A DNA stretch of 32,000 nucleotides from an uncultured Chloroflexia bacterium (GTDB taxonomy: Bacteria > Chloroflexota > Anaerolineae > Anaerolineales > Anaerolineaceae). This document shows, one piece after another, positions 3,046 to 25,240 of the stretch (within the stretch, counting starts at the first letter, position 1; every line of letters begins with the position of its first letter). The notes below the pieces were generated by a model. The model was not told the DNA's origin and searched no databases. It was given only the letters and a program-made list of their open reading frames with translations. A program made the position numbers and the translations under genes. Location of the stretch: NCBI GenBank assembly GCA_963704755.1, contig OY969938.1, positions 1,530,001 through 1,562,000 on the forward strand. The letters are read 5' to 3'.

Positions 3046-3157
3046 GTAACCACTCAGATTATTGGGAAAAAGGCCGAATTTGATGTGTTTGCTGGGACGA
3101 AGCTCCCAGCAAACACATCAAATTCGGAAATCTAAGCACAAGAGCCTGAGCAGTTAC
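3046..3157. mobile_element. MITE-like element, copy A (outer arms plus core-1 palindrome)
   Basis: Ends are GTAACCACTCAG and CTGAGCAGTTAC. The core is a perfect 24-bp stem, 3074-3097 against 3104-3127 (ccgaatttgatgtgtttgctggga). No clean target duplication is visible. Confidence 0.7.
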
Positions 3158-3197
3158 TAAAAGCAAAGCTCTTCTTTCAAAATTGGAGGATTATAAA

Positions 3198-3398
3198 ATG
3201 TCATTCCGTAACGAATCAAGCATCGATCGTATCATCCGGGTTGTCGTGGGTGCGGCTTTATTGGCCTTAGGTTGGGGTGGGTTGGTCTCAGGTATCCCTG
3301 GGACAATTTTGAGCATCGTTGGCGTGCTCGCGCTGGTCACCGGCGTGGTTGGCTTTTGCCCGGCTTACGCCCTGCTGAAAGTACGCACCAACAAATAG
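3198..3398 (+). CDS. DUF2892 (YgaP-like) small two-helix membrane protein
   Basis: Sequence IDRIIRVVVGAALLALGW...VTGVVGFCPAYALL matches the DUF2892 pattern, including GFCPxY. GGAGGA at 3185-3190 lies 7 nt before ATG 3198. The TTG at 3183 in the ORF track is unlikely to be the start. Confidence 0.7.
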   Translation: MSFRNESSIDRIIRVVVGAALLALGWGGLVSGIPGTILSIVGVLALVTGVVGFCPAYALLKVRTNK

Positions 3399-3442
3399 CA
3401 CTTCCAGGGGAGGCCATCATCAACCACGTACAATATCGCCAA

Positions 3443-3940
3443 ATGTTAACCCGCAAAAAGCTACCGGTCCTGGTGGAATTCTGGGCACCCTGGTGTATGC
3501 CCTGTAAAAGCATGGCCCCTTTGATCCAGGCAGCCGGGGAAAAGCACAAGGACCGCGTCGAAGTCTGGAAGATCAACGCCGACCAGAACCCCGAGCTGCT
3601 GCGCGCGTTGGGTATCCGCGGCATACCAACCATGCTGGGCTACCGCCAGGGCGAGGAAGTTCTGCGTAAAACCGGGGCTGTGACGGCCGGTACCCTGGAC
3701 AAGCTCTTCTCGGCGCTGGCCGAGGGCAAAGAAGTGCCCAGCGGGCCGGAGCCCATCGCCCGCGCCCTGCGGATCGTTGTTGCGTTGTCGCTGGGTGTAC
3801 TTGGCTTCACCCAGGGTCCCAGTTATTGGCTGCTGGCACTGGGTGCCCTGGTCCTGATCTGGGCGTTTTACGACCGCCTGGCAGCAATCAAAGCGCTCAA
3901 ACCGCTGCTGGCCAGGTCGCGTTCACAGAATAAAGATTGA
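3443..3940 (+). CDS. Thioredoxin-domain protein (WCMPC) with a C-terminal two-helix membrane anchor
   Basis: Trx core is PVLVEFWAPWCMPCKSMAP...GIRGIPT. The C-terminal segment RIVVALSLGVLGF...WLLALGALVLIWAF is hydrophobic and resembles DUF2892. The first ATG (3443) has no Shine-Dalgarno (SD) sequence. A GGGGAGG at 3407-3413 precedes in-frame ATC codons at 3416 and 3419, so the true start is uncertain. Confidence 0.7.
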   Translation: MLTRKKLPVLVEFWAPWCMPCKSMAPLIQAAGEKHKDRVEVWKINADQNPELLRALGIRGIPTMLGYRQGEEVLRKTGAVTAGTLDKLFSALAEGKEVPSGPEPIARALRIVVALSLGVLGFTQGPSYWLLALGALVLIWAFYDRLAAIKALKPLLARSRSQNKD

Positions 3941-3953
3941 ATCCATAAAAAAA

Positions 3954-4064
3954 GTAACTACTCAGGCTAGGTCGGAAGTTAGGGGCGTTTTTATGTTTTT
4001 TCGCGTGCTTTGCACGCGATAAAACATAAAACACCCCTCTCTTTTGCGGTAGCTGAGCAGTTAC
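3954..4064. mobile_element. MITE-like element, copy B (outer arms plus core-2 palindrome)
   Basis: Ends are GTAACTACTCAGG and CTGAGCAGTTAC. A run of 7 A flanks each side (3947-3953 and 4065-4071). The core-2 hairpin, 3981-4008 against 4012-4038, is imperfect and is followed by ctcttttg. It starts 14 nt after the trx stop, so it may act as a terminator. Confidence 0.8.
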
Positions 4065-4070
4065 AAAAAA

Positions 4071-4119
4071 ATACAGGCCGTAATTGGGAGAAATTTACTG
4101 TCCCAATTACGGCCTGTAT
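4071..4119. repeat. Perfect 19-bp-stem palindrome (single copy in this window)
   Basis: atacaggccgtaattggga (4071-4089) pairs with tcccaattacggcctgtat (4101-4119) across an 11-nt loop. It begins at the last A of the 7-A run flanking MITE B. Confidence 0.85.
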
Positions 4120-4382
4120 CGATTTGGGGGGGCTTTGTTTGATTCGATTTAACTTATCTAAACAATTTCCCACGCTTGCAACGAAATTGCCCGCTTTCAG
4201 GCTATAATCTATAAAACACTGAAAAATTCTCAACAAAATACTTTACAGAAAAACAAAACAGCCTATTCTACCGGTGGCTTCGCGAAAGAATTTGTCTCTG
4301 CGGTCTGGCTTGAAAAATGCGGGGAATAAATTAGTCTCGTATTCAGGAGAGCCATAAACATGCCGATCAAAAATCCAGGCCT

Positions 4383-5762
4383 ATGCTAACCATTGATAGT
4401 TTCCAAACCACGACCCTGCGTTCCCTCCCCGAAGGGGAAAATATCCGCAAGATCTTATTGGCTGCCCTGCAAGCCGTTGAGCCAGGCGCAGCGGTCGCAC
4501 GCAACCTGGTCCGCGAAGGTAACTTGCTCCACTCGGGCGATTTCAATTACGACCTGAGCCTGTTCAAGCGCATTTTTATCATCGGCGCGGGTAAAGCCGG
4601 GGCACCGATGTTGCGGGCAGGTGTCCGTATTTTAGGCGACTGCTTCGACGACAGCCTGGTGATTGTCAAGGATGGTTCCCTGGGTTGGCCGCGCGGTGAA
4701 ACCATACCCCTCAAGGTCCGCCTGGTGGAAGCCGGGCACCCGCTGCCCGATCCGCGCGGTTTACAGGCCACCCGCCAAATGCTCGACCTGCTCGCGCAGA
4801 CTACCAGCGAAGACCTGGTTATTTGCCTGATCTCCGGCGGCGGATCGGCGCTGTTGACCGCCCCGGCCGAAGGAGTTAGCCTGGGGGATATGCAGGACCT
4901 GACCACCCGCTTGCTGCGCTGCGGGGCATCGATCAACGAGATCAATACCCTACGCAAGCATCTCGACACGGTCAAAGGCGGCGGGCTGGCCCGTGCGGCC
5001 GCCCCGGCCCAACTGCTGACCCTGGTGCTTTCCGACGTGGTCGGCAGCCCATTGGACGTGATCGCCTCCGGCCCGACCGTGGCCGACCGCTCGACCTATG
5101 CCGACTGCCAGGCGATCCTCAAACGCTATGGCCTGGAAGAAGACCTGCCGGACGGCATCCTGAAACACTTGCGCGATGGCGCCGCCGGCCGAATTGCGGA
5201 CACACCTAAGCCCGGTGACCCCATTTTCGAACGTACCCACACCCTGGTGATCGCCTCGAATCAGCAGGCCGCCCAGGCGGCGGTCCACGAAGCCGAGAGC
5301 CTGGGGTTCAACAGCCTGCTGCTGACCACTTTCCTGCAAGGTGAAGCGCGCCAGGCCGGGCGGACGCTGGCCGCCATTGCCCGCCAGATGAACACCAGCG
5401 GGCAGCCCGTATCGCGCCCGGCCTGCCTGGTGACCGGCGGCGAGACCACCGTCAGCCTGCGCGGGGATGGCCTGGGCGGGCGCAACACTGAGTTAGCCCT
5501 GGCCGCGGTGCCCGGATTGGCCGGCCTGGAGAAGTGCCTGCTGGTCAGCCTGGCCACCGACGGCGGCGATGGGCCAACCGACTCGGCCGGGGCGGTCGTC
5601 AGCGGAGAGACCCTCGAGCGCGCAGCGCGCCTCAAGCTGTCCCCGGAAGACTTCCTGGCCCGCAACGATTCGTACCATTATTTCGAAAAACTCGGCGACT
5701 TAATAAAAACCGGTCCCACCCAGACGAACGTCAATGATTTGGTGTTTGTGTTTGCGTTGTGA
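4383..5762 (+). CDS. Glycerate 2-kinase / MOFRL-family protein (TtuD-like)
   Basis: 459 aa. It has IIGAGKAGAPM near the N-terminus, the GGGSALL motif and a C-terminal MOFRL-like GGETTV...GGRNTE...TDGxDGPTD region. Confidence 0.85.
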   Translation: MLTIDSFQTTTLRSLPEGENIRKILLAALQAVEPGAAVARNLVREGNLLHSGDFNYDLSLFKRIFIIGAGKAGAPMLRAGVRILGDCFDDSLVIVKDGSLGWPRGETIPLKVRLVEAGHPLPDPRGLQATRQMLDLLAQTTSEDLVICLISGGGSALLTAPAEGVSLGDMQDLTTRLLRCGASINEINTLRKHLDTVKGGGLARAAAPAQLLTLVLSDVVGSPLDVIASGPTVADRSTYADCQAILKRYGLEEDLPDGILKHLRDGAAGRIADTPKPGDPIFERTHTLVIASNQQAAQAAVHEAESLGFNSLLLTTFLQGEARQAGRTLAAIARQMNTSGQPVSRPACLVTGGETTVSLRGDGLGGRNTELALAAVPGLAGLEKCLLVSLATDGGDGPTDSAGAVVSGETLERAARLKLSPEDFLARNDSYHYFEKLGDLIKTGPTQTNVNDLVFVFAL

Positions 5763-5838
5763 AGGAAAGAGAATAGAGAAGAGAGAGTAGAGAGTAGAGA
5801 GCAGTCAACAAGGTGATCAGTCAACAAGTTGACGAGGG
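5763..5838. repeat. S1 satellite block, inverted orientation
   Basis: The reverse complement reads ccctcgtcaacttgttgactgatcaccttgttgactgctctctactctctactctc..., the same motif family as 6205-6301 and 2786-3000. It starts right after the glycerate kinase stop. Confidence 0.75.
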
Positions 5839-5875
5839 AAGAGGTTGTTATAAGCAGCCTCCCGGTAGCAAAGCT

Positions 5876-5903
5876 CCCCTTCTCCCGCAACTGGGAGAAG
5901 GGG
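5876..5903. repeat. REP-like hairpin (ccccttctccc-N6-gggagaagggg)
   Basis: 11-bp stem followed by ccgggggttgaggg. The same architecture occurs at 2581-2607 (in each of the three tandem units), 28773-28795 and 28899-28919. Confidence 0.8.
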
Positions 5904-5960
5904 CCGGGGGTTGAGGGCATGGCGCTGGCTGTCTTGTCGTCCAGGGAACGAGTCGCCTTT

Positions 5961-6241
5961 TTCCCTATCTTCTCCCCTGCCAATTCAGGCATTAGCCCCC
6001 GGCTTCGAAAGCCGGGCTACGTGTTCCGCCCTCATTGACTTATTGCCTTGTTCCCTATCTTCTCTTCTGCATATTCAGGCATTAGACCCGGCTTCGAAAG
6101 CCGGACTACGCTTTCCGCCCTCATCGATTTATTGCCTTATTCCCTATCTTCTCTTCTGCATATTCAGGCATTAGACCCGGCTTCGAAAGCCGGGCTACAC
6201 GTACCACCCTCATCGCCTCGTTGCCTCGTCGACTTATTGCC
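5961..6241. repeat. Tandem repeat, 90/89-bp unit, about 3 copies
   Basis: Units are 5961-6050, 6051-6139 and 6140 to about 6241; the third carries an extra cctcgttgcctcgt segment. Each unit contains the hairpin cccggcttcgaaagccggg. Confidence 0.9.
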
Positions 6242-6246
6242 TAATC

Positions 6247-6301
6247 TCTATTCTCTATTCTCTACTCTCTACTCTCTACTCTCTATTCTCTACTCTCTTT
6301 C
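6247..6301. repeat. 7-nt microsatellite TCTAYTC, about 7.5 units
   Basis: The units tctattc and tctactc repeat head to tail. The array overlaps the last codons and the TAG stop (6283-6285) of the histidine kinase on the opposite strand. Confidence 0.9.
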
Positions 6302-7545
6302 TTCTCCCCAAGCACAAACGTAAAACACGTCCCCTTGGCCAGCTCGCTTTCGGCCCAGATGCGCCCACCGTGGGCGTTGATGATCCCGCGGGCGATGGCC
6401 AGGCCCAGGCCGGCCCCGCCGGTCGAGCGATTGCGCGATTTATCCCCCCGGTAGAAACGCTCGAACACCCGCGGCAAATCTTCCGGGCTGATACCTTCCC
6501 CGCTGTCGCATACCCGCACCGCCACCATGTCGCCCTCCCGCTGGGCGCAGATCGTCACCGACCCGCCCGTCGGGGTATGCCGTAAGGCATTGCTGACCAG
6601 GTTCGACAGCACCTGGCCGATGCGCTGGCCATCGATCCAGACCGGGTCCACGTCCGGGTCGGCCGAACCGCTCAACGCTACCTGCTGGCGCCGGGCCAGC
6701 TCCGAAAAGCTCTCGATCGTGTCCGAGATCAGGTCACCCAGTGAATTGTCCTGGCAGTCCAGCTTCAGCCCGCCCGCGTCCATTTGCGAGATCTCGAACA
6801 GGTCATCGATCAGGTGCGAAAGCGAGCGTACGTCCCGCTGGGCGGTTTGCAGATAGCGCTGGACCGTCTCGGGTTCGTCCACTACCCCATCTCCCAGCGC
6901 TTCCAGGATGGCGCGGATCGAAGTGAGCGGTGTGCGCAGGTCGTGGCTGACCCAGGCGATCAGGTCGCGTTGCAGGCTGTCCAGCTCGCGCTTTTTCTGT
7001 TCAACCGCCTCCAATTGGGCGGTCATGGCGTTGAAGTCCAGCCCCAGGCGGGCCATTTCATCCTGCCCGCGCACCGGCACCCGCACCGAAAGGTCTCCGC
7101 GGGCAATTTCGCGGGCCGCCTGGCCCAGCACCAGGATCCGGTCGGTGATCGCCTCGGTGACAAAATAGCCCACCGACAGGGCAATGCCGGTCGCAAATAC
7201 CAGCAGCACCGTGGCTAACAGTAAATCGTGCCGGCTGGCGAACATCATCCGCGCCGTGACCCACACGTTGAGGAAAACCACCAGCCCGGCCAGTAAATAG
7301 CCCAGCATCAAGGTCCAGCGGATGCCCGGCGAACGGTAGATCCACCCCAGGCGATAAGCCAGATAAGCCGCCGCGACCGAGATGAACGCAGTCACCCCCA
7401 TCAAGGCCAGCATCAAAGCAAAATCCTGGATCGGTGGGTGCATCAACAGGACGAACAGGGCCAGCCCGACGGCCAGCGGGAACAAAAAACTGCTCAGAAA
7501 GCGCAACAGCAGGGCCGGGCGTTGATTAATTTGAATGGTTTGCAT
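6283..7545 (-). CDS. Sensor histidine kinase (4 TM segments, HAMP, HisKA, HATPase_c)
   Basis: H-box is VSHDLRTPLTSI, N-box LVSNALRHTP, G-boxes DSGEGI and GGAGLGLAI. There are four N-terminal hydrophobic segments with connecting loops of 11 aa or less. ATG 7545 lies 7 nt after the response regulator stop, and GAGGGGA overlaps that stop. Confidence 0.85.
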   Translation of the reverse strand: MQTIQINQRPALLLRFLSSFLFPLAVGLALFVLLMHPPIQDFALMLALMGVTAFISVAAAYLAYRLGWIYRSPGIRWTLMLGYLLAGLVVFLNVWVTARMMFASRHDLLLATVLLVFATGIALSVGYFVTEAITDRILVLGQAAREIARGDLSVRVPVRGQDEMARLGLDFNAMTAQLEAVEQKKRELDSLQRDLIAWVSHDLRTPLTSIRAILEALGDGVVDEPETVQRYLQTAQRDVRSLSHLIDDLFEISQMDAGGLKLDCQDNSLGDLISDTIESFSELARRQQVALSGSADPDVDPVWIDGQRIGQVLSNLVSNALRHTPTGGSVTICAQREGDMVAVRVCDSGEGISPEDLPRVFERFYRGDKSRNRSTGGAGLGLAIARGIINAHGGRIWAESELAKGTCFTFVLGEKKESRE

Positions 7546-7552
7546 GGTCCCC

Positions 7553-8916: not shown

Positions 8917-8919
8917 GAC

Positions 8920-9876: not shown

Positions 9877-10041
9877 TTTCTCGCCTCGTTCCATTAATAA
9901 ACTGATCCAATATATCCTGATTGTACATTAATCAGACCGTCCTGGTCGCGATAAGCTCACTTATAAGCCCTTGGAGGATTGTGGTTGTAAACGCGCTTCG
10001 CACGTTTCCAACCGCAATATTGAGAAGTATTAAGTGCTCCT

Positions 10042-10755: not shown

Positions 10756-11001
10756 CAACCCATCTCCGAAAATCATCTTGTGTATTGGGTGTTTCTAAAT
10801 AGATGCCAAATCGGATTGAATTTATCTTATCGTCTAAACCTTAAAGCAAGGCAAAGAGAATATTACGAAATCATTACAGAAAACCCGTCTCGTTCAGGTT
10901 TCTGTAAGAGAAAATTAAAGTCCGCGTAATAGTATTTTGTCATGATGAAGGAGCACTTCAATAATTTAATCCAAGCACCTGCTCGGCCGGATGGGAAGGA
11001 C

Positions 11002-11056
11002 TACGAATTTGAGTGGTCGGTGTGGGTTTTGCTCACGCAAACCACTCAAATTCGTA
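11002..11056. repeat. Core-1 variant palindrome, stand-alone
   Basis: tacgaatttgagtggt (11002-11017) pairs with accactcaaattcgta (11041-11056). It is related to the ccgaatttgaggtg core, with matching substitutions in both arms. Confidence 0.75.
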
Positions 11057-11111
11057 AATTCCAGGCATGAGCCCGATTAATTGGGAATACAATTGAATAA
11101 GGAGTAAAGAG

Positions 11112-11927
11112 ATGCGAAAAGGATTATTTGTAATTGTTTTGTTGTCATTGGCCCTGGCTGCCTGCCAGGCCACTCCCCAGCCGGCCAGCAGCACCGAGGC
11201 CATGATGAGCGCAGGCGCGACCAGCACCACAGCGATGATGGGAACCACGCCAGAAACCGCCATGGGGACCGAGGCTATGGGTAATGAAAGCATGGGCACG
11301 GAAACCATGGGAACCGAGGCCATGGGGACCGAGGCCATGGGAACCGAGGCCATGGGCACGGAAGCTATGGGCACGCAAGCCATGGGCACGCAAGCGATGG
11401 GAACGCAAGCGATGGGAACCGACACTATGGGCGCCACTGCCGATATGTCGATGGGTGAGACGATGGTCACCGGGACGCCGGATTTCTTCAGCACCGACCT
11501 GACCGACGTGACCAGCGGGGATACCTTCAGCCTGGCGTCCATGCAGGGTAAGGTCATTGTGGTGGAAGATATGGCACAGTGGTGCCCCACCTGCCTGGAC
11601 CAGCAGAAGCAGATCAAGGCCTTCCTCGAGCAAATGGGTATGCCGGCCGACCTGGTTGTGGTCAGCCTGGATATTGACCCCAACGAGAACGCCGCCACTC
11701 TCAAGAATTACGTGGCCACCAACGGCTTTGGCTGGCATTATGCCGTCGCCCCTGCGGCCGTGACCCGCGAGATCAGTGACAAGTTTGGCGCAGAATTCCT
11801 CAACCCGCCTTCGACCCCCATGTTCGTCATCGACCGTCACGGCGCAGTACAACTGCTGCCCTTCGGCGTCAAATCCGCCGACGACCTGGCCAAAACCGTC
11901 CAGCCTCTGCTCGACGCGGGAATGTAA
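11112..11927 (+). CDS. Thioredoxin-fold (TlpA/redoxin-like, WCPTC) lipoprotein with an N-terminal methionine-rich repeat region
   Basis: AAGGAG at 11099-11104 precedes ATG 11112. The lipobox is LALAAC. Residues 31-120 contain 19 Met, including 12 tandem MGT[EQ][AT]-type pentapeptides. The redoxin core is VIVVEDMAQWCPTC...VVVSLD...PMFVIDRHG. Confidence 0.8.
   Translation: MRKGLFVIVLLSLALAACQATPQPASSTEAMMSAGATSTTAMMGTTPETAMGTEAMGNESMGTETMGTEAMGTEAMGTEAMGTEAMGTQAMGTQAMGTQAMGTDTMGATADMSMGETMVTGTPDFFSTDLTDVTSGDTFSLASMQGKVIVVEDMAQWCPTCLDQQKQIKAFLEQMGMPADLVVVSLDIDPNENAATLKNYVATNGFGWHYAVAPAAVTREISDKFGAEFLNPPSTPMFVIDRHGAVQLLPFGVKSADDLAKTVQPLLDAGM
11262..11441 (+). repeat. In-frame 15-bp tandem repeat, 12 units, inside the CDS
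   Basis: Units of the form atggg[a/c/g]ac[c/g]ga[g/a]gc[c/t] start every 15 nt from 11262 to 11427. Confidence 0.95.
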
Positions 11928-11933
11928 AAAACT

Positions 11934-12087
11934 TGTGTCAAGTGTCGGGGGTCACGAAGTGCTTCCGTGTTACAGTGTTACAGTGATCCAGTGCCTTGGG
12001 GTTGCAAGCGAGCACACGATAAACCAACTCACTGAAAAACGGAAACACTGAAACACCGAGACACGCCGTGACACCCGATACCTGACC
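11934..12087. repeat. S2-family foldback (imperfect inverted repeat of GT-rich and CA-rich satellite arms)
   Basis: The left arm (about 11934-11995) reads gtgtcaagtgtcgggggtcacg...gtgttacagtgttacagtg. The right arm (about 12021-12087) reads ...cggaaacactgaaacaccgagacacgccgtgacacccgatacc. The left arm shares gtgtcaagtgtcggg with 26325-26339. Confidence 0.7.
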
Positions 12088-12934: not shown

Positions 12935-12967
12935 CTTCATTTGTACCTGTTCAGCCTAACGAGAAAG

Positions 12968-12987
12968 AACCCCGAATTTGAGGGGTT
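12968..12987. repeat. Collapsed core-1 remnant hairpin
   Basis: aacccc-gaatttga-ggggtt retains the ccgaatttgagg signature. It lies 13 nt downstream of the stop of the minus-strand membrane protein gene and is followed by a T/C-rich run on that strand. Confidence 0.5.
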
Positions 12988-12999: not shown

Positions 13000-13740
13000 T
13001 TACCTGCGCCGGAAAACGCCCAGCAAAATGGTTGCACCGACCAGGATAAGCAGGGTCGGTCCCAGCAGGTTCCAGTTGAGGCCCAGAAAGGCCACTGCCC
13101 CGGTCGCCCCGGTCAGCAGGCCAAAGAACACCAGCGAGATGACCGAACCATTGACGCGCTGTTGGCGTACGGCCACGATCAGTGCATTGATGATTGCGCC
13201 GACGGCCGGGATGAAAATGCCAACCGCCCACCATTGGTAAGGACCAAAGTAGGTTTGCAGGGTGAACCAATTTAAGTTTTTGCCCAGGAAACCCGCGCCA
13301 ACGTACATCACGCCCAATCCCAGCCAGAAAGCCATGTTGATCAGCCCGGTGCCTTTGTGTTTCTGGCCGGTCTCGATCCCGTCCAGCAGCAGGGCAAAAC
13401 CGGGCACAATGACCATCAGCGGCCACCAGTAAAACCAGTCCAGCCCGAACAGGAACATAAACGCCACCGTGAAGATGACCAGCGCCGAACCAAAGGCGCC
13501 CAGCGTACCGGCCGTCACCCGGCCGTGTTTTTGTACATCATAAACGGCCCCGCTGAGGGTGCCAAATGCCGGAACCAGGATAAACAGGGCCCACCAGTTA
13601 TAGCTCGGGCCAAGCCAACCGGCCTGTTGGGCAAAAATGATCAGCCCGCCCAGGATCAAAACCAGGCCCCACCAGGCGCCGCCCAGGGGTCGTTTGGTGA
13701 CCTTGCGGTCCTCGTCTGAATAAGAAGTTGGTTGTTCCAT
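13000..13740 (-). CDS. Polytopic membrane protein of unknown function
   Basis: 246 aa with about 8 hydrophobic, Trp/Gly-rich segments and internally repetitive architecture. I did not recognise a family. Confidence 0.55.
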   Translation of the reverse strand: MEQPTSYSDEDRKVTKRPLGGAWWGLVLILGGLIIFAQQAGWLGPSYNWWALFILVPAFGTLSGAVYDVQKHGRVTAGTLGAFGSALVIFTVAFMFLFGLDWFYWWPLMVIVPGFALLLDGIETGQKHKGTGLINMAFWLGLGVMYVGAGFLGKNLNWFTLQTYFGPYQWWAVGIFIPAVGAIINALIVAVRQQRVNGSVISLVFFGLLTGATGAVAFLGLNWNLLGPTLLILVGATILLGVFRRR

Positions 13741-16341: not shown

Positions 16342-16402
16342 GTGACCACTCGCTCTCCCGCGGATTGTTACAGGCCTTTTCACCGCGACCCCGAGTAGTT
16401 AC
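16342..16402. mobile_element. Short core-less MITE-like relic
   Basis: It runs from GTGACCACTCG to GAGTAGTTAC, which resembles the outer arms of copies A and C but has no palindromic core. No clear target duplication. Confidence 0.4.
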
Positions 16403-17374: not shown

Positions 17375-17435
17375 ACGGACTCGCTTTGCGTGAATTGCGT
17401 CTCCGCCGCAATTCACACAAAGCATATCAAGAGGT

Positions 17436-17533
17436 GTAACGCGTAAGCAAATGTGGAAGGACCCCGAATTTGAGGTATTTGCTGAGGCATTGCCTCAAAT
17501 TCGGGAACTTACATATCTGTGCAGAGTAGTTAC
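17436..17533. mobile_element. MITE-like element, copy C (core-1 variant)
   Basis: Ends are GTAACGCGTAAGC and CAGAGTAGTTAC. The core arms are 17463-17475 and 17493-17505. Its flanks are CAAGAGGT (17428-17435) and AAAGAGGT (17534-17541), a 7/8 match. The right-hand copy serves as the SD sequence of ecfT. Confidence 0.75.
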
Positions 17534-17547
17534 AAAGAGGTCCCTTC

Positions 17548-18420
17548 ATGCTGGTTACCTGGCGCTACCAGAAGCGTAATTCACTCATCCAATCCTTCGA
17601 CCCGCGGGCCTGGATCATTTTCTTCGCCTGCTACCTGGCCTGTACGGTCTTATTCTGGGACCTGCGCTTTCTGCTAATTTTGTTAGCCCTGGCGCTGGTG
17701 GTGGTTTTCACCTCGAAAATCCCCTTCCGTGAAATGCGCCATGCCTGGATCTTCATCGGCGGTTTCGTGGTCTTTTTCTCGGTGCTGACTTTTCTGACCG
17801 GGCGCGGGGGCATCGAGCTCTACACGACCGAGCATCTCATCGCCCGCTACCAGGCCTCTTTCACCATCCTGGGTTGGCGGCCCACTTTGACGATCACGTC
17901 CGAGAAGATCATGTATTCCATTTCGATGCTGGTACGCGTGTTCAGCCTGGCCAGCATGACCATCCTGATCCCCTATTCGCTCAACCCGGCCCATTACGGC
18001 ATCACTTTCAAGGGCCTGGGCCTGCCGGATAAAGTGGCCTACGGTATGGACCTGACCATGCGCTTCATCCCCTCCTTTGGCCGCGACTTCATGCTCACCC
18101 GCGACGCCCAGCGCGCCCGCGGTTACGAGCTGGAAAAATTGAGCGGCGGGTTGATCGCCCAGGTGCGCAAACTGGCTCCCCTGATCGTCCCGGTGACCAT
18201 CCACGCCATCGTCAGCAGCGAGGATATAATCGACGCCATGGATCTGCGCGCTTTCGGCATCGGGCCGCGCACCTGGCTGGAGCAGCTCCACTTCCGCACC
18301 CGCGACCGGGTCCTGCTCGTCGTCGGGATCGTTATGCTGGTGATTTGCATATCCCTCTCGCTGTTCGGCATCGGCAAATTCTGGGTTCCGCAGTTCCTGA
18401 TCCGCCTTGCCGGTGGATAA
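17548..18420 (+). CDS. ecfT: ECF transporter T component (EcfT/CbiQ family)
   Basis: 290 aa, polytopic. It carries the characteristic Ala-Arg-Gly coupling motif (RDAQRARGYE) and a second DAMDLRAFG motif. Confidence 0.85.
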   Translation: MLVTWRYQKRNSLIQSFDPRAWIIFFACYLACTVLFWDLRFLLILLALALVVVFTSKIPFREMRHAWIFIGGFVVFFSVLTFLTGRGGIELYTTEHLIARYQASFTILGWRPTLTITSEKIMYSISMLVRVFSLASMTILIPYSLNPAHYGITFKGLGLPDKVAYGMDLTMRFIPSFGRDFMLTRDAQRARGYELEKLSGGLIAQVRKLAPLIVPVTIHAIVSSEDIIDAMDLRAFGIGPRTWLEQLHFRTRDRVLLVVGIVMLVICISLSLFGIGKFWVPQFLIRLAGG

Positions 18421-18426
18421 ATCTTG

Positions 18427-18515
18427 AGAGAGGGGTGTTTTTAATGATTCTCGCGTGCTTCGCACGCGAGAATCATTAAAAACACCCCTCTCTTTTGCGG
18501 TAGCCGAATTGTTGC
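18427..18515. terminator. Core-2 perfect 32-bp-stem palindrome with a degenerate right MITE arm, probable ecfT terminator
   Basis: 18427-18458 pairs with 18462-18493 across loop ttc, followed by ctcttttgcggtag and ccgaattgttgc (compare ctgagcagttac). It starts 7 nt after the ecfT stop. No left outer arm is present. Confidence 0.65.
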
Positions 18516-18700
18516 TTAAAAGTTATCTGTTTTTAATAATTAAGAGTTAGTATTAAGTGAATAGTGTTGTGGGGTCATCACTAAATCATTAATAAAATAA
18601 GAAGGGTTACTCATACAGGCTAAATCACCAGTCCCGTCATTATTTTTATACACCTGCGTCTGCTAGCCCAATATCTTTCAACCGCGAAAGGGGAGAATTG

Positions 18701-19051: not shown

Positions 19052-19068
19052 GCAGGCAGCCTTTATTT

Positions 19069-21975
19069 TTATAGAATTTTCTCGACCTGCATGTCCTGTT
19101 TCGCTGCGCTGGCCTGGATCGATTCGGCCGTGCCCAACACGACCACGTCGCCTTTTTGGCGAACTATGTCGAGCACATCCGCGAAGGCATGAAAATCGGC
19201 GCTGGAAGTGGCCAATACCTGGTCGCGGATGCGCTGGCGTTCCTCGTCACTGTACCCGGTCATGTAACGCAGCAAAGCCGAATAGCCTTTGGCATCCGGG
19301 AGCTGGTACCCATCGATATCCCCGATCGCACCGATGATGGACCGGGTCAGCTCGTCTTCGCTCAGGTCCAGGTTGCGCAGAAAGTCCGCCGCGCCGTCGT
19401 AGGCGGCCAGGGTCTGGTCTACGTTCGGGTCGCGGTAGGAAACATAATTCAACACCCCACTATAATGGTCGAAAGTGGTGAATCCGCCGTAAGCCCCACC
19501 CATAACCCGGACCTTTTCCCACAGGTAGGTATTGCGCAGGTACGGCAGAATCACGAAAGCCGAACCTTGCAGCTTATACCCCTGCTCGAAGATATTGGCC
19601 CCCTTGCCGACGAAGTTGACCTGTGAGGGCAGGGTCCAGCCTTCCGACCGGGGATAAGCGGCCGGTTTCCAGATTTCAGCCTTCAAGGACCGCTCGGGCA
19701 GCCCGGCGATGAAGCGCTCGATCGACGGGCGGCATTGGGCAAAGTTAGCCTCGTCCAGGGTCAGGTTCACCAGGCTGGCGCCGCGGGTGAACAGGCGCTC
19801 GCGGATATCTTCCAGAATGGCCTGAACACTCGCCCAATCGCTATCGATTTCCTGCTGCAAGCGCCGTAAAAAGAGCAATTGGGTCAATCCGCCGGTCTGT
19901 TCATTGGCCCAATTGGCTTCGTTGAAGTGCGCCTTCAGGCGGGTATTGATCATGATATGGCCGGCATCGGTCAGGCCGGATTTGTAGGATGCCTTATCCT
20001 CCAGCACCATCTGGCGGATACGTTCGCGGTTGTCCAGGCGGGCATTGAATATCGTTTCTCGCAAGATATCCAGCAAATCGTCCGTCTGCCCGGCCATGAC
20101 TTTCCCGCGCAATATCAGCCAGGCTGCGCTTCCGGCCGATCCACGTTTGCCCGAGATGAAGGTAGTGGGATGGATACCGCCCGTTCGCTGGCCGATCTTC
20201 TGGATGAGCTGGACAAAGTTCAGGCTGGTCGTGCCGGTTTCCAACAAAGCCCGGCTGAAGAGCGGCAAATACGGCAGCCAGGCCGGTGGCAAGCTGTGCA
20301 GGTCGAAACCCAGGTCGAGGTAAGCAATTCCATTGGTGAACAAATCGTGGAACAGAATCTTTCCACCTCCGGCAGCAATTTCCTGGCCGGGAACCTTCTT
20401 GATCAAGGGCTCCAGGTCGCTGCGCTGTAACATCGGGATGGTCGCCAATGCTTCCGGGCTGTCCGGGGTCTGCTGGCGCTGTTTGAGATCCTGGGTCGCC
20501 GCCACGATTTCATCGATCTGGGCAGGATTCATCCCGGCCCGCACTTTGGCGATGCGTTCCCTCTCGCGAGCCGCGCGCTGTTTACCCAATTCCGGGTCCG
20601 GCTTGAGCAGTACCACCGCCCGGTGGGTGTTTTGCAAGAAATACGTGCGGATCAGGTTCTCGAAATAGGGTTCGCCCTTTTCCAGGTGTGATTTGACGCC
20701 TGCCAAGGGCGCTTCGAACGCCAGGGTATGGATAGGATCCTGGTCATACAGCCAGGTGTGCAGCGAGCGCAGCATCAGCGATAAGCCGCGCGGGAAGGAG
20801 CCGGTGTTATTCTCACGCAGGTGGAACTCCACCGTGTTTAACGAAGCCGAGACGGTATCCGGATCGATGCCTTTGTCCGCCAGGTCTTGCAGCGTGTCCA
20901 GGATCAGCTTTTCGGTCGCGGCCGCCTTGTCTTCCTGGATGCCCTTCAAGCCGGTCGAAAACATCGGCTGGCGGAAATCTGTGTCCAGGCCATTACCGGT
21001 CAGGTCCTCGCCCCAGCCCGAGTCGATCAGCACCTTGCGCAGCGGCGCAGCCGGCGTCCCGATCAAAATATATTCCAAAATTGCCAGACCCAACGAGGTT
21101 TCCGCGTCGCTTTGCTCAGGCAGCATCCAGTTGACGCATACCTGTGCGCGCGGGTTTTCATCCTCCCCACAGTCGTAGAATACCTCTTTGCGAACCGGCT
21201 GGGTAAACGGCTTTTGCAGGCGGATGGACGAATCGATCGGGCGTTTCTCATACCCGGCCAGGGCCTTGTCGATCAAAGCCAGGCGCTGGTCGGGGTCGTC
21301 GTCGCCATAGAACCAGATACGGGCATTGGTGGGATGGTAGTAATCCTGATGGAAGGATTTGAACTCCTCAAAAGTCAGGTCTGGGATGATCTCAGGATCT
21401 CCGCCGGAATCCAGGCTGTATAACGTATCCGGGTAGAGCGCCTTGCGGCTCTGGTCAGACAGCACCGAATCGGCCGAAGAATAATCGCCCTTCATTTCAT
21501 TGAACACCACTCCCTTATAGGTCATCTCGCCATCTACCGCATCCAGCTCGTAATGCCAGCCTTCCTGCGCCAGGGTATAGGGCGTGATAAAGGGATGAAA
21601 AACCGCGTCGAGGTACACATCGATCAGGTTATAGAAATCCTGCAAATTGGCGCTGGCCACGGGATAGCAGGTCTTGTCCGGAAAGGTAAACGCGTTCAAA
21701 AAGGTATTCAAAGAGCCCTTGATCAGCTCCACGAACGGCTCTTTGACCGGGTATTTCTCGGACCCACACAGCACGGAATGCTCCATGATGTGGGCCACGC
21801 CGGTCGAATCCGGCGGCGGCGTGCGGAAAGTGATTCCGAAGGTCTTGTTTTCGTCCTCATTTTCCAGGCTTAATAACTCAGCCCCGGTACGGATATGCCG
21901 CCACCGGCGGACACGCGTTTTTAATTCAGCAATCTGCCGGTCTTGCAGCAGTTCGAAACCATGTACTTCAATCAT
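19069..21975 (-). CDS. M16C-family zinc metallopeptidase (PreP/falcilysin-like insulinase)
   Basis: 968 aa with the inverted zinc motif HIMEH (HxxEH) near the N-terminus and a four-domain length typical of M16C. AGGAGG lies 9 nt before ATG 21975. Confidence 0.9.
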   Translation of the reverse strand: MIEVHGFELLQDRQIAELKTRVRRWRHIRTGAELLSLENEDENKTFGITFRTPPPDSTGVAHIMEHSVLCGSEKYPVKEPFVELIKGSLNTFLNAFTFPDKTCYPVASANLQDFYNLIDVYLDAVFHPFITPYTLAQEGWHYELDAVDGEMTYKGVVFNEMKGDYSSADSVLSDQSRKALYPDTLYSLDSGGDPEIIPDLTFEEFKSFHQDYYHPTNARIWFYGDDDPDQRLALIDKALAGYEKRPIDSSIRLQKPFTQPVRKEVFYDCGEDENPRAQVCVNWMLPEQSDAETSLGLAILEYILIGTPAAPLRKVLIDSGWGEDLTGNGLDTDFRQPMFSTGLKGIQEDKAAATEKLILDTLQDLADKGIDPDTVSASLNTVEFHLRENNTGSFPRGLSLMLRSLHTWLYDQDPIHTLAFEAPLAGVKSHLEKGEPYFENLIRTYFLQNTHRAVVLLKPDPELGKQRAARERERIAKVRAGMNPAQIDEIVAATQDLKQRQQTPDSPEALATIPMLQRSDLEPLIKKVPGQEIAAGGGKILFHDLFTNGIAYLDLGFDLHSLPPAWLPYLPLFSRALLETGTTSLNFVQLIQKIGQRTGGIHPTTFISGKRGSAGSAAWLILRGKVMAGQTDDLLDILRETIFNARLDNRERIRQMVLEDKASYKSGLTDAGHIMINTRLKAHFNEANWANEQTGGLTQLLFLRRLQQEIDSDWASVQAILEDIRERLFTRGASLVNLTLDEANFAQCRPSIERFIAGLPERSLKAEIWKPAAYPRSEGWTLPSQVNFVGKGANIFEQGYKLQGSAFVILPYLRNTYLWEKVRVMGGAYGGFTTFDHYSGVLNYVSYRDPNVDQTLAAYDGAADFLRNLDLSEDELTRSIIGAIGDIDGYQLPDAKGYSALLRYMTGYSDEERQRIRDQVLATSSADFHAFADVLDIVRQKGDVVVLGTAESIQASAAKQDMQVEKIL

Positions 21976-22068
21976 TGGAAAATACCTCCTAAAACCGAAC
22001 CATGTGCGCCGGAATGGCGCTATAAGGAATGGGCTCTCGTTGCATGCCCGAAATTATTTTGAAACCTC

Positions 22069-22180
22069 GTAACTACTCAGGCTTATGTTAGAAATTTCCC
22101 GAATTTGAGGTGTTTGCGGGGGCGAAGCCCCCGCAAACACCTCAAATTCGGTTTTCTTACCTGATAGGCTGAGCAGTTAC
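22069..22180. mobile_element. MITE-like element, copy D (core-1), with a perfect 8-bp target-site duplication
   Basis: Ends are GTAACTACTCAGG and CTGAGCAGTTAC. The core is a perfect 25-bp stem, 22099-22123 against 22127-22151, with loop gaa. It is flanked by GAAACCTC at 22061-22068 and 22181-22188. Confidence 0.85.
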
Positions 22181-22260
22181 GAAACCTCAATTGCAACCCA
22201 GGTCCCGCGACTCAGGACAGGCGCACGGAAACGCCGGCGCCGGAAAAAACCTGTGCGTTT

Positions 22261-23472
22261 TTACGCGACAGCTTTTCTTTTTTCCGGTAAGCGAATTATA
22301 AAGAATAAACCGGCTAAAATGACAATACTGCTGACCAAATAGGCGTAGTGCATACTGAACAGGTCGGCAACGCGCCCGACCGAAACGGCCGAGATGGTCT
22401 GGCTGAGGAAACTGATGGCCATGAAAATGCCGTTCGCCAGGGCCCGGTTTTCAGGGTAGCTCTCCTGAACGATTGCCATCAATGCCGGTGGGGAGCACAA
22501 CAGGGCAAAACCCAACCCCAGTAAAATAGGGTATTGCACCCAACCATTCGAGATCAGCAGCAGGAAAATGAACAGCGCCGTAAAAGCGACCGAAAAGGCC
22601 AGCACCGGCCGGCGACCCAGGCGATCCGAAAGGCTGCCGCCCAGGAAAGCCCCCACCACCCCGGCCGCCTCCATGACCGACAGGGAAACTCCGGCCAACA
22701 CCAGGCTGGCGCCTTTCTCGGTCAGGTAAGTAGGCAAAAATGTGCCGACGCAGGCGTTGGCAAACGAACGGGCAAATAAATAGCCGGCCACCGGGAGGAT
22801 TACCGGCCACATTTTCCGGAGTGCTTCACCCCAGGGCATATCCAGGCCGTTCTGCGGTTTTACCTCGCGCACCTTGCCCAACTGGATATACAACATTATC
22901 GAAATGATAACGCCCAGGATCGAGATCAGCGGGGTACGATCGGGTCCCAGGTAAGTAATGGCGTTCACGATGATGATCGGGCCAATGGTCCGGCCGATCT
23001 CACCGCCCACCATCCAGAAGCTCATTCCCAGCCCCAGGCGATCGCCAGACAGGCGCCCGGCCAGCACCGGCCCGGTGGAGTGCAGCACGGCCGAACTGAA
23101 GCCGGCTACCAACAAGAACAAGGCCACCAGGATATACGACGGCGCCACGCCGATAAAACTCATGGCGATAGCCGAAATCGCCGGGGTGGCAGCCACGAAA
23201 ACCCGCAGGGCCTTGCGGTCGGCTGCGTAGCCGATGAACGGCTGTAACAGGGAAGGCGCCTGGATAAAGACGGACAAAAGCCCGGCTTGCATTTTTGCCA
23301 GGCCAAACTTTTCGATCAACACCGGCAGCAACGGCGGCAAGAACGCGGTGAAAGTATCGTGCAGGCCGTGGCCCGCAGCGATTGTGGCTACCAGGCCGGT
23401 ATTGAATGAATTGGCCGGTTGAGGTGCTTCTATCAATATTTCAGGTGAGTTCTGCGCAGTCGTATTTTCCAA
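22261..23472 (-). CDS. MFS transporter (Fsr-like)
   Basis: 403 aa, about 12 TM segments, with an N-terminal GHGLHDTFTAFLPPLLP...QPFIGYAADR pattern. TTG start, with GGAG 5 nt upstream. Confidence 0.75.
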   Translation of the reverse strand: MENTTAQNSPEILIEAPQPANSFNTGLVATIAAGHGLHDTFTAFLPPLLPVLIEKFGLAKMQAGLLSVFIQAPSLLQPFIGYAADRKALRVFVAATPAISAIAMSFIGVAPSYILVALFLLVAGFSSAVLHSTGPVLAGRLSGDRLGLGMSFWMVGGEIGRTIGPIIIVNAITYLGPDRTPLISILGVIISIMLYIQLGKVREVKPQNGLDMPWGEALRKMWPVILPVAGYLFARSFANACVGTFLPTYLTEKGASLVLAGVSLSVMEAAGVVGAFLGGSLSDRLGRRPVLAFSVAFTALFIFLLLISNGWVQYPILLGLGFALLCSPPALMAIVQESYPENRALANGIFMAISFLSQTISAVSVGRVADLFSMHYAYLVSSIVILAGLFFIIRLPEKRKAVA

Positions 23473-23526
23473 AGATACTCCAACGGCTTCCGCCCTATGC
23501 TCTACTGATCATGGCAAAAAGCAGGT

Positions 23527-25002
23527 CTATGATTCCGCGGCTGGCTCGGCTTCGAGTTGTTTCGAATGGCTCTTGCGGCGTTGGTCGATCAGGATCGCTG
23601 CGACCGCAATCAAAGTGGAAGCCAAAATGACCAGCGCTGCAATCTGAAAAGTATTGTGAATCCCGGCGACCAGCGCTTCCGGGCTGGCCGTGGTAATGTC
23701 GGTGCTACTCGGCAGTCCGGCAAATACCAGCACGTTGGCCGCAAAGATGGCCCCAATCAACGGCAGGCCGGTGGATTGGCCTAACGTACGCGACAACGCC
23801 AGGAGCCCGGAGGTGATCGACAGGCGGTCCCTGGGCACGGCTCCCATAATTGCGCTGTTGTTCGGCGACTGGAACATACCCATGCCCAGGCCAATGGGTA
23901 CCATGCGGATCACAAAACCCAGGGCCGTCTCGCCCACATTGTAGGTAGAAATCAAATAAGCACCCAGGCTAACCGAGATCAACCCGATCAACGCGATGAC
24001 CCTGGTTCCGAAGCGGTCGGAAAGTGCCCCGGCGAAGGGAGCGATCAGGCCCATACAAACCGGGTCGGCCATCATCAGCAGGCCGGACATGGTCGTCGAA
24101 TAACCTAACACCAGCTCCAGATAATAAGGGATGATAAACATGCCGCCGAGCACCAGGAACACCAGGAAAGACATGACCAGGTTCATATTAAAAAGAACGT
24201 TATTGAACAAGGACAGGTCGATCATCGGCTGCCTGGCCCGGCGTTGAACCGCCAGGAAAATTACAATTCCTATCACTGAGGCGGCCAGCAAGAGTTTGAT
24301 GCTGAACGAGCCAAACCCTTCCAATTGTCCAATTGTCATAGCCAGGGCATAAAGGCCCAGGGTGACGAACATAATGGAGGCGCCCAACCCATCGAAGACC
24401 TGGTTGGGCTGGCTGGGTTGCAGGGTGGGGATAAAACGCAGAATGATGAAGGTAGAAATAATCCCGATCGGCACGTTGACCAGGAAAATCCAATGCCACG
24501 AGGCCAGGCCGATAATCAGGCCGCCCAACGGGGGGCCAACGGCAATACCCACCGATACGATGCTGCCCATCAACCCCAGGGCCCGGCCGCGTTCCGAAGG
24601 CGGAAAGACTTCGGTGATGATCGCCATACCCAGCGCCTGGGTAAACACGGCCCCCAGGCCTTGCAAAGCGCGAAAGGCAATCAGCATATAAATGTCGGTG
24701 GAAACCGAGCACAAAAACGAGCCGATCGTGAACAGGATCAGTCCGCCCAGGTAGAGGACTTTCTTGTTATGCATATCCCCCAGGCGGGCAGCGCCCAGCA
24801 TTAGCGATGTGACCACCAGGACATAGCTCAACATGACCCATTGCACGGTGGCGAAGTTGGTGTGAAATACCAATTCCAGCGTTGGCAGCGAAATATTAAC
24901 GATGCTGGCGTCGATGGTCGCCATCAAAACACCCATACCTACGCCAATAAGAGCCAACCACCGTCTGGATGGTGGAGAAAGAACCAAGGAATTATTTTCC
25001 AT
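23527..25002 (-). CDS. MFS transporter, DHA2 (EmrB/QacA-like, 14-TM) family
   Basis: It is long enough for 14 TM segments and has motifs such as GDMHNKKVLYLGGLILF and FRALQGLGA. ATG 25002, with GAGG 8 nt upstream, is preferred over the TTG at 25053. Confidence 0.8.
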   Translation of the reverse strand: MENNSLVLSPPSRRWLALIGVGMGVLMATIDASIVNISLPTLELVFHTNFATVQWVMLSYVLVVTSLMLGAARLGDMHNKKVLYLGGLILFTIGSFLCSVSTDIYMLIAFRALQGLGAVFTQALGMAIITEVFPPSERGRALGLMGSIVSVGIAVGPPLGGLIIGLASWHWIFLVNVPIGIISTFIILRFIPTLQPSQPNQVFDGLGASIMFVTLGLYALAMTIGQLEGFGSFSIKLLLAASVIGIVIFLAVQRRARQPMIDLSLFNNVLFNMNLVMSFLVFLVLGGMFIIPYYLELVLGYSTTMSGLLMMADPVCMGLIAPFAGALSDRFGTRVIALIGLISVSLGAYLISTYNVGETALGFVIRMVPIGLGMGMFQSPNNSAIMGAVPRDRLSITSGLLALSRTLGQSTGLPLIGAIFAANVLVFAGLPSSTDITTASPEALVAGIHNTFQIAALVILASTLIAVAAILIDQRRKSHSKQLEAEPAAES

Positions 25003-25156
25003 TAATGAGACCTCAATGTAAACGTTCGAAATTGTATCACTTTTTGTATACAAAACTCAGAAAAATAAGCAGGCTTAATGGGGATCGCCGTGGCGACGGC
25101 CTGTATTTGGGGGTGTGCATGCAGAGGAGCCGCAGCAATTCGCCTGGTGATACTTC

Positions 25157-25240
25157 GTGACTACTCAGGCCAGATCGAAAATTAGGGGTGTTTTTATTAT
25201 TTTTCGCGTGCTTCGCACGCGAAAAATAATAAAAACACCC
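25157..25240. mobile_element. MITE-like element, copy E (left arm plus core-2; right arm degenerate or absent)
   Basis: The left end is GTGACTACTCAGG. The core is a perfect 26-bp stem, 25186-25211 against 25215-25240, with loop ttc. Confidence 0.7.

Follow-up and report, generated by a model that had tools for sequence, protein, structure and literature searches.

The window, a stretch of 32 kb of DNA analysed here at its full length, carries short palindromic repeats in which one pair of outer arms encloses two different interiors. This raises the question of what these elements are, which enzyme would mobilise them, and how the same arms came to surround different cores. A first-pass annotation had read them as non-autonomous, MITE-like elements and had tentatively linked them to the IS66 family.

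Element copies in the window

A profile census of the window counted ten copies or remnants, all of them intergenic (Table 1). In their layout, a long palindrome occupies the interior and is joined by short linkers to a 12-nt terminal inverted repeat, GTAACT[A/G]CTCAG, at either end; the paired arms read GTAACTRCTCAG ... CTGAGYAGTTAC, and the window copies are 98-112 nt long, without coding content. With at most one mismatch, the GTAACTRCTCAG arm has nine matches in the window against 0.08 expected (0/100 shuffles). Core 2 (TCGCGTGC-NNN-GCACGCGA) is matched three times where 0.03 matches are expected, while core 1 (CCGAATTTGAGG...) has 13 matches at up to two mismatches, 10 of which lie in core-1 copies, with 3.7 expected by chance. 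A search of Rfam 15 gave no match in the window at or above any family's gathering score.

Table 1. Copies and remnants of the element in the window, with arms, core, profile score, folding score and genomic surroundings.
Feature	Position	Strand	Structure	nhmmer E	Fold z	Surroundings
Copy A	3046..3157	.	112 nt, core 1; arms GTAACCACTCAG / CTGAGCAGTTAC	2e-25	-8.5	upstream of small ORF starting at 3199
Copy B	3954..4064	.	111 nt, core 2; perfect arms	3e-33	-10.9	between thioredoxin-like gene stop (3940) and native hairpin 4072-4120
Decayed core-1 copy	10975..11082	.	hairpin intact; degraded arms, left GCACCTGCTCGG, right ...GAGCCCGATTAAT	2e-22		divergent intergenic region
Core-1 copy, truncated, left half	12943..12987	.	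arm GTACCTGTTCAG	2e-7		directly downstream of LiaF-TM gene stop at 13000
Relic	16342..16402	.	61 nt; arms GTGACCACTCGC ... CCGAGTAGTTAC			separates ecfA from ECF S-component gene
Copy C	17436..17533	.	98 nt, core 1; left arm degenerate	2e-18	-7.0	7/8 duplication copies the ecfT ribosome-binding site (ecfT ATG at 17548)
Copy F	18405..18514	.	core 2; perfect 32-bp palindrome; arms decayed	1e-31	-12.1	left part overlaps final codons of ecfT (stop at 18420)
Copy D	22069-22180 (with duplications 22061..22188)	.	112 nt, core 1; perfect arms	2e-29	-13.0	MFS gene stop on one side, M16 peptidase start on the other
Copy E	25157..25254	.	core 2; left arm GTGACTACTCAG, right arm lost; perfect 26-bp palindrome	4e-27	-8.9	from response-regulator stop to MFS start
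Decayed core-1 copy	31159..31240	.	hairpin shortened; arms unrecognisable	6e-14	-6.7	histidine-kinase gene stop codon (31225) inside right linker

The seven copies listed by the first-pass annotation were all recovered where it had placed them. Its limits for copies F and E are better drawn as in Table 1, and it had missed the three core-1 copies that begin at 10975, 12943 and 31159. The intact arms of copies D, A and B suggest that these are young; the remaining seven are decaying remnants. The flanks described earlier for copies D, C and B are as noted: copy D lies between two occurrences of GAAACCTC (22061-22068 and 22181-22188), a target duplication matching at 8/8; the flanks of copy C, CAAGAGGT and AAAGAGGT, match at 7/8, the right one containing AAGAGGT; and copy B is flanked on either side by seven A, a low-complexity context. 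The flanks of copy A match at 4/8, which is no clear duplication.

Comparison with a syntenic relative (L246), made at the level of the locus at 75% amino-acid identity, showed that the gap matching that of copy D is about 10 bp long and empty. This relative has core-2 MITEs, and the gap equivalent to that of copy E holds an intact 112-nt core-2 element. In another locus-level comparison, the elements of L107 are missing from syntenic L009. A base-level empty site was not found, since amino-acid identity to the nearest relative is only 75%.

Spread across genomes and a probable IS66-type partner

Both scans of the sequence collections demanded perfect arms, so that arm conservation is partly imposed by the search. 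The genome scan found paired arms in at least 119 blocks against about one expected, in Chloroflexota, Zeta-/Gammaproteobacteria, Desulfobacterota, Elusimicrobia and others, with many element copies per MAG among the loci scanned. At an initial pass, 65 of 129 elements had perfect 8-bp flanks and a further 13 matched at 7/8, against a maximum of 6/8 in the shifted-flank control. The seeming exceptions were longer elements of 152/172 nt, whose true ends are flanked by 8/8 duplications. In all, 109 elements are bounded by duplications (7–8/8 flanks), with lengths of 72-268 nt and a mode of 112. These consistent flanking duplications across many genomes support the non-autonomous MITE reading of the first-pass annotation; their length, which it had put at 7-8 bp, is 8 bp. 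The interiors fall into 35 unrelated clusters, and what they have in common is the 12-bp ends only. The earlier description of two interchangeable cores holds in that two interiors occur under the same arms, but it is one case of this general rule.

The autonomous partner was sought in metagenomes with a scan for the arm, 216-276 nt and the IS66 transposase motif DNNxAE, using ISEc8 as positive control. Among the at least 120 loci found, 112/120 encode a transposase according to an HMM, with the domains DDE_Tnp_IS66 (Pfam E = 1e-40 to 1e-53), zf-IS66 and DUF6444. Both arms are present in the full IS elements, which measure 1.5-1.7 kb or about 2.5 kb; 8-bp duplications accompany them where the flanks are clean, perfectly so in eight. 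Among 67 full-length IS from metagenome contigs, duplications at 7-8/8 were seen in only 11, a low rate that we attribute to putative chimeric repeat flanks in short assemblies. The termini of IS and MITEs have an identical 12-nt consensus, in which A and G occur at position 7 in the same ratio of ~80:20, and conservation drops from position 13 in both. Moreover, Flexilinea flocculi (Anaerolineae) carries an IS with exact arms, another IS (L245) is flanked by the duplication CTTCTTTT, and in a single metagenome contig (L209) the remnant of a transposase accompanies a core-1 MITE whose duplication matches at 8/8. An IS with matching terminal repeats, which the first-pass annotation had proposed to seek in the window's own genome, was found in metagenome loci and in F. 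flocculi. The IS66 link that it had suggested is supported: full-length elements that encode DDE_Tnp_IS66 have these 12-nt ends together with 8-bp duplications. The family was right; the partner belongs to the single-ORF ISBst12 group, without the classical three-gene IS66 layout.

Taken together, the window elements are very probably MITEs with the ends and the 8-bp footprint of the IS66 family, ISBst12 group, whose transposase would be encoded elsewhere. Indeed, they are short and non-coding, with terminal inverted repeats, a fixed 8-bp duplication, a dispersed multicopy distribution and ends common to an autonomous IS. The element family is an ordinary parasite of an ISBst12-group transposon, previously undescribed, in many bacterial phyla. 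A single-ORF IS66-type DDE transposase (DUF6444 + zf-IS66 + DDE_Tnp_IS66), encoded elsewhere, would recognise both termini and move the element, and a staggered cut of 8 bp at the insertion site would give rise to the 8-bp duplication.

For the window's own genome we infer mobilisation in trans. As reported earlier, the window has no transposase: Pfam found neither a transposase nor an IS66 domain in 20 ORFs, and the cognate-transposase HMM had no match in any ORF of 100 aa or more. A transposase was also absent from 800 kb of MITE-bearing loci. The cognate enzyme is unproven in this genome, since the window's contig (4.87 Mb) carries none of the 120 best transposase homologues, and the window copies may be fossils.

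Interior palindromes and alternative explanations

Within the interiors, mirrored changes were found at nine pairs (0/500 shuffles), against zero pairs in the arms. The loop is TTC or GAA in each of both sequence subtypes, and a folding score of z < -4 was obtained for 82 of the 109 interiors. In the explanation that we favour, the interior palindromes are not derived from the IS and turn over quickly by DNA-level processes acting across the palindrome, namely mirrored substitutions and loop inversion, while constraint falls on the 12-nt ends only. This is why the same arms surround different cores.

The presence of core 1 and core 2 under the same arms within one genome could instead mean that they are independent mobile or recombining modules exchanged within a common arm scaffold. 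The linkers beside the core are similarly purine-rich in both types, and at 18405-18514 and 31159-31240 cores occur without recognisable arms. The latter, however, still match full copies in alignments that cover the linkers and degraded arms, and are thus decayed elements and no free modules. The core-1 profile reaches the core-2 copy B through the arms only (nhmmer E ~1e-3), no chimeric core was seen, and 35 unrelated interiors with common ends across genomes are what is usual for a MITE superfamily defined by transposase-binding termini; we therefore give module exchange little credence. Still less can be said for ends that are coincidental, or for another mobiliser, be it a RAYT acting on REP-type palindromes or an ISL3, IS256 or IS1595 element with 8-bp duplications. 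The failure to find the cognate transposase in the window or in MITE-bearing loci would fit such a scenario, which is nevertheless hardly credible: the same arms bound IS66-type transposases in 112 of the 120 arm-plus-motif loci, the published termini of ISDge4 are the same sequence, and the classical IS66 elements that we fetched also start with GTAA and have 8-bp duplications. In the ISfinder family tables, the ends of ISL3, IS256 and IS1595 begin with GG or are of GA type, and are not known to start with GTAA. REP elements leave no target duplications, and REP/BIME (RAYT-associated) sequences, imperfect short palindromes that often form arrays, were rejected on account of the 8-bp duplications found here and of the arrangement of the elements, which are scattered singly and have distinct arms.

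Another reading holds that the elements are kept mainly for the use that the host makes of the interior hairpins, which would act between genes as portable intrinsic terminators or as stem-loops that stabilise mRNA, the arms being a delivery vehicle only. The ten copies in the window all lie between genes, and copies B, F, E and the remnant at 12943-12987 come straight after stop codons; purifying selection against genic insertions would equally yield such a location. Some copies have terminator-like scores, one family of L006/L107 has an A-tract, a GC stem and a T-tract on both strands, and in L009 the orthologous gaps hold plain terminator hairpins where L107 holds elements. Yet the terminator-like matches in copies D and A disagree in orientation with the upstream gene, core 2 has its T-run within the stem instead of after it, and at least five T on either strand occur in only 21 of 81 elements. 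The position after the main hairpin shows no overall T-run enrichment, with 2.5 T among nine positions where 2.2 would be expected. An intrinsic terminator motif, a GC-rich hairpin with a T-run behind it and in the orientation of the upstream gene, which the first-pass annotation had named among the alternatives for the arms, was rejected on this ground and on the inconsistent orientation in copies A and D. The strong folding noted above also speaks for a host function, whereas the mirrored changes and the loop inversion are changes of the kind that template switching at the DNA level yields, for which selection on RNA is unnecessary. On balance we consider retention for the host unlikely.

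Within the reading as IS66-type MITEs, the hairpins might themselves serve transposition. GAA/TTC triloop hairpins belong to the very stable d(GCGAAGC) type, and to our knowledge the IS66-type transposase is poorly understood. It is conceivable, if quite improbable, that these hairpins are a required cis-acting structure, an extruded hairpin or cruciform joining the 12-bp ends for the transposase. If true, this would explain the convergence of dozens of unrelated interiors on one architecture, as well as the maintenance of pairing through mirrored changes and loop flips.

Comparison with known mobile elements

A close named relative is ISDge4 from Deinococcus geothermalis, which belongs to the ISBst12 group within the IS66 family and is an autonomous element with a 449-aa transposase, TIRs GTGACTACTCAGCA / GTAACTGCTCAGCA and an 8-bp direct repeat, whose transposition was shown experimentally (PMC12898284). 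Its termini match the window arms, and copy E likewise begins with GTGACTACTCAG. The window elements differ from it in their length of 98-112 nt, in encoding nothing and in their unrelated interior palindrome. They share GTAA termini and 8-bp direct repeats with the IS66 family and the ISBst12 group, and are classed here among the derivatives or hitch-hikers of that group, outside the IS66 members proper, because they encode nothing and the window contains no IS66 domain.

The same 12-nt consensus and 8-bp duplications characterise the ISBst12-type single-ORF IS (L160, L175, L176, L224, L236, L242, that of F. flocculi, L243, and L245), which also occur in Anaerolineae, the class of the window's relatives. 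These IS are 1.5-1.7 kb long, or reach about 2.5 kb where an ORF with a DruA domain is present, and their similarity to the short elements ends by ~18-20 nt from the terminus. Plasmids of Acaryochloris and Ca. Chlorohelix also carry ISBst12-type single-ORF IS66 elements, and the cultured cyanobacterial and Chlorohelix copies have the variant arms GTTACTGCCCAG and GTAACARTTCAG. The classical IS66 elements ISEc8 and ISCro1 have GTAA termini and 8/8 duplications, verified here, as in the window elements, and the left end of ISCro1, GTAACCGGCTCAT, is similar to the window arm. They differ in having tnpA/tnpB/tnpC, a length of 2.4-2.7 kb and termini of the form GTAAGCG...; their proteins are only weakly similar to the cognate transposases, and no homologues of these proteins were detected in the MITE loci.

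Bacterial MITEs such as Correia of Neisseria, Nezha and Chunjie are short, non-coding, multi-copy and intergenic, with terminal inverted repeats, target duplications of fixed length and strong hairpin folding. The window elements differ from them in their ends, in the length of the duplication and in the transposase family; furthermore, in contrast to these MITEs, the ends of the window type are common to at least 35 unrelated interiors in many phyla.

Copies of the element in the window

The arm GTAACTRCTCAG is matched nine times in the 32 kb with at most one mismatch, against 0.08 matches expected (0/100 shuffles). The arms enclose either core 1, a long hairpin that begins CCGAATTTGAGG, or core 2, a hairpin with the centre TCGCGTGC-NNN-GCACGCGA. 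Every copy listed in the first-pass annotation was found in the sequence, but that list was incomplete, as repeat finding and nhmmer profiles added three decayed core-1 copies. The census thus stands at ten copies or remnants, all ten intergenic, at a density of about one copy per 3 kb; Rfam gave no match within the window. The claimed flanks were also recovered, with GAAACCTC as a perfect duplication on either side of copy D, CAAGAGGT and AAAGAGGT around copy C, and seven A on each side of copy B. No clear duplication was found in the flanks of copy A.

Element copies and other repeats in the window
Feature	Position	Detail
Copy A	3046-3157	core 1
Copy B	3954-4064	core 2
Decayed copy	10975-11082	core 1; unlisted in the first pass
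Decayed copy	12943-12987	core 1; unlisted in the first pass
Remnant	16342-16402	gap between ECF genes
Copy C	17436-17533	core 1; gap between ECF genes
Copy F	18405-18514	core 2; directly after ecfT
Copy D	22069-22180	core 1
Copy E	25157-25254	core 2
Decayed copy	31159-31240	core 1; unlisted in the first pass
78-nt tandem, x2.9	2556-2780	
8-mer CCTTGTTG, x7	2823-2881	
89-nt tandem, x3	5955-6226	hairpin CCCGGCTTCGAAAGCCGGG in each unit
7-mer CTACTCT, x8	6241-6298	inverse at 5763-5804, 93% complementary
15-nt unit GCCATGGGCACGGAA, ~10 repeats	11259-11431	within ORF 11112-11927
8-mer CGGTGTTT, x23	26144-26326	plus 14-mer x5; inverse partner at 12017-12064

Element remnants occupy both gaps between the ECF genes as well as the position directly after ecfT. 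Copy C, which spans 17428-17541 with its flanks, is inserted in this ECF-transporter operon. Its duplication includes AAGAGGT, the ribosome-binding site of ecfT, and a correctly spaced AAGAGGT copy remains before the ATG at 17548.

The window belongs to a 4.87-Mb contig, and the nearest relative of this genome, at 75% amino-acid identity, is represented by a locus (L246) that is syntenic with the window. Its MFS-M16 gap, of about 10 bp, contains no element, whereas the window carries copy D there. The gap matching that of copy E contains an intact core-2 element, and another two core-2 elements are present in the locus, of which one is flanked by a 7/8 duplication. A LiaF-like gene with its downstream element was considered as an orthologous pair between the two loci and rejected.

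The window is also rich in intergenic repeats unrelated to the MITEs (2556-2985, 5763-6310, 26144-26395 and 12017-12064). Because of the position of its inverse, the CTACTCT array and that inverse flank the 89-nt array. Since the Redoxin/AhpC-TSA domain of ORF 11112-11927 is at the C-terminus, the 15-nt repeat in this ORF is likely to specify a repetitive peptide in the N-terminal part.

Short elements in other genomes and their 8-bp footprint

Paired arms 70-100 nt apart were searched for in 185,579 species genomes (596 Gb) and found in at least 119 genome blocks, against about one expected by chance from the information content of the pattern and the 596 Gb searched. The blocks among the matches listed are mostly from Chloroflexota (Anaerolineae, Thermoflexales), with others in Zetaproteobacteria, several Gammaproteobacteria, Desulfobacterota, Elusimicrobia, Armatimonadota, Fibrobacterota and Acidobacteria. 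Two MAGs of the Anaerolineaceae (L007, L066) also carry the core-1 family of the window, and viral contigs scanned for paired arms gave no match.

The 8-bp flanks are identical in 65 of 129 elements and agree at 7/8 positions in 13 more, among the matches listed, while a control with the flanks shifted by 8 nt reached at most 6/8. The apparent duplication-free exceptions are in fact longer elements with perfect 8/8 duplications at their true ends, of 152 nt in Zeta- and Gammaproteobacteria (L011, L018, L025, L080, L084, L087, L095 and L112) and of 172 nt in Desulfosarcinaceae (L005, L021, L078 and L110). Besides the two terminal arms, these elements have one more inside, and the inner pair mimics an element of 121 or 106 nt without duplication. 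The first-pass description of the family as MITE-like is thus borne out, with 8-bp duplications bounding 109 elements among the matches listed. Clustering of the interiors of these 109 elements gives 35 unrelated groups, so that all the elements share is the 12-nt ends and the 8-bp duplication.

Long arm pairs in L030, L097 and L054 enclose host genes or non-coding DNA and no transposases; unpaired arms proved to be decayed short elements. Interiors in L057, L075, L079, L093 and L032 contain the motif GTCATTCTGAGCGAAGCGAAGAATC or GTCATTGCGAGGAGC...GACGAAGCAATC, which resembles a short palindromic repeat in its own right, widespread and nested in the MITE.

Interior palindromes

Folding of entire window copies gives z = -6 to -13, and z is below -4 in 82 of the 109 interiors. 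Of 39 perfect stems with 10 bp or more in the genome loci (L001-L119) and in window copies A and D, 25 have GAA or TTC triloops closed by G-C pairs. Sequences of this d(GCGAAGC) type form an unusually stable DNA minihairpin. The stretch following the hairpin contains 2.5 T of 9, against 2.2 expected, hence no T-run enrichment, and the orientation of the elements is inconsistent; a family-wide terminator role is therefore not supported.

Pairing in the core-1 family across genomes is kept by two-sided changes in 16 of 34 pairs. In the largest family (20 copies in two MAGs), nine interior pairs vary by mirrored changes only, a number reached in 0/500 shuffles, with slid controls giving 0-3; mirrored changes are absent from the arm helix of the same family, which has four unpaired departures. 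With the asymmetric linkers used to set the direction of each copy, about half of the copies have TTC in the loop and the others have the reverse complement GAA, in both sequence subtypes. Quasipalindrome correction is an established mechanism across DNA palindromes. The mirrored changes and loop flips probably arose in this way, by inversion or template switching across the DNA palindrome, a process that would keep the stems perfect yet let them drift, and to which the diversity of the cores could then be due.

An IS66-type transposase between the same ends

The first-pass annotation reported no transposase gene in the window, and none was found there, its genes being housekeeping or regulatory. 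No transposase-like gene was found either in 800 kb of element-bearing loci, which also contain no multi-copy ORFs. The GTAA termini and 8-bp duplications given in that annotation as IS66 traits were both verified on ISEc8 (2442 bp, termini GTAAGCGTACA..., 8/8 duplication GTTAAACC) and ISCro1 (2699 bp, left end GTAACCGGCTCAT..., 8/8 duplication CAAAGTGT). A tblastn search with their TnpA/B/C proteins gave no match in the element-bearing loci or the window.

In both ISs the distance from the right end inwards to DNNxAE, a conserved motif of TnpC, is 243-250 nt, and metagenome contigs were therefore scanned for the arm followed, after 216-276 nt, by the reverse-complemented motif, the ISEc8 positive control having been recovered beforehand. 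At least 120 loci (L123-L242) were found; only a few chance matches are estimated from the information content of the pattern, the total size of the collection not being given. With an HMM based on eight verified proteins, 112 of the 120 listed loci were seen to encode the transposase, whereas neither the short-element loci nor the window gave a match. Pfam assigns DDE_Tnp_IS66 (E = 1e-40 to 1e-53), zf-IS66 and DUF6444 domains to these transposases, and finds no TnpA or TnpB with them.

Full-length elements that have both arms form two main size classes, 1.5-1.7 kb and about 2.5 kb, with perfect 8-bp duplications in eight and 7/8 in three. Their 12-nt terminal consensus is identical to that of the short elements, including an approximately 80:20 A/G ratio at position 7. 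Conservation collapses from position 13 in both groups, and the similarity between them ends by about 18-20 nt. The ~2.5-kb variants have a second ORF with a DruA domain (PF14236, Druantia DruA / DUF4338; E ~1e-33), directly upstream of the transposase, in the same orientation and within the terminal repeats (24 of the 120 listed loci, e.g. L180:472-1371 and L207:1388-2272); no DUF4338-IS66 link was found in the searchable literature.

One metagenome contig (L209) combines an arm, the frameshifted remnant of an IS66-type transposase, host genes and, 5.5 kb away, a core-1 element of 112 nt flanked by an 8/8 duplication. Among the closest relatives of this remnant is an IS66-family transposase from a cultured member of the Anaerolineae, Flexilinea flocculi, whose 1545-bp IS has exact arms (L243:5385-6929, DF968181.1). 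The Flexilinea transposase is split into overlapping ORFs at 5457-6026 (DUF6444 and zf-IS66) and 6001-6921 (DDE), which could be a frameshift or a pseudogene, and its TGA stop falls within the right terminal repeat CTGAGTAGTTAC. No target duplication was found for this copy; the same IS on a 496-kb contig (L245) has the duplication CTTCTTTT. Plasmid-borne relatives (40-47% identity) include ISs with 8/8 duplications from Acaryochloris (1551 bp, ends GTTACTGCCCAG) and Ca. Chlorohelix (1504 bp, ends GTAACARTTCAG), and relatives from Bacillus thuringiensis and Pseudanabaena with one exact arm each.

The short elements are thus a genuine MITE family with the termini of the IS66 ISBst12 group, and the first-pass reading of them as non-autonomous elements, probably mobilised in trans, is supported. 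A repeat class that is very abundant in Anaerolineae-type genomes, and also present in many other phyla, can now be labelled precisely, which helps annotation, assembly and comparative genomics of mostly uncultured lineages. Furthermore, at least 35 unrelated interiors on one 12-bp end pair, with mirrored substitutions and repeated loop inversions, form a clean natural data set on palindrome evolution. No concept is changed, as MITEs parasitising a known IS family are expected. No prior description of the arm sequence, of IS66 MITEs or of MITEs in Chloroflexi was found in the searchable literature, and PMC8024623 does not give terminal sequences.

The IS66 link is supported by the arm-bounded DDE_Tnp_IS66 elements and can be sharpened to the ISBst12 group by ISDge4 of Deinococcus geothermalis. 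This member of the group has the TIRs GTGACTACTCAGCA and GTAACTGCTCAGCA, an 8-bp direct repeat and demonstrated transposition (PMC12898284, 2026). It ties the repeats to one transposase group and offers an experimentally tractable handle on them, its TIRs being the same as the arms of the window.
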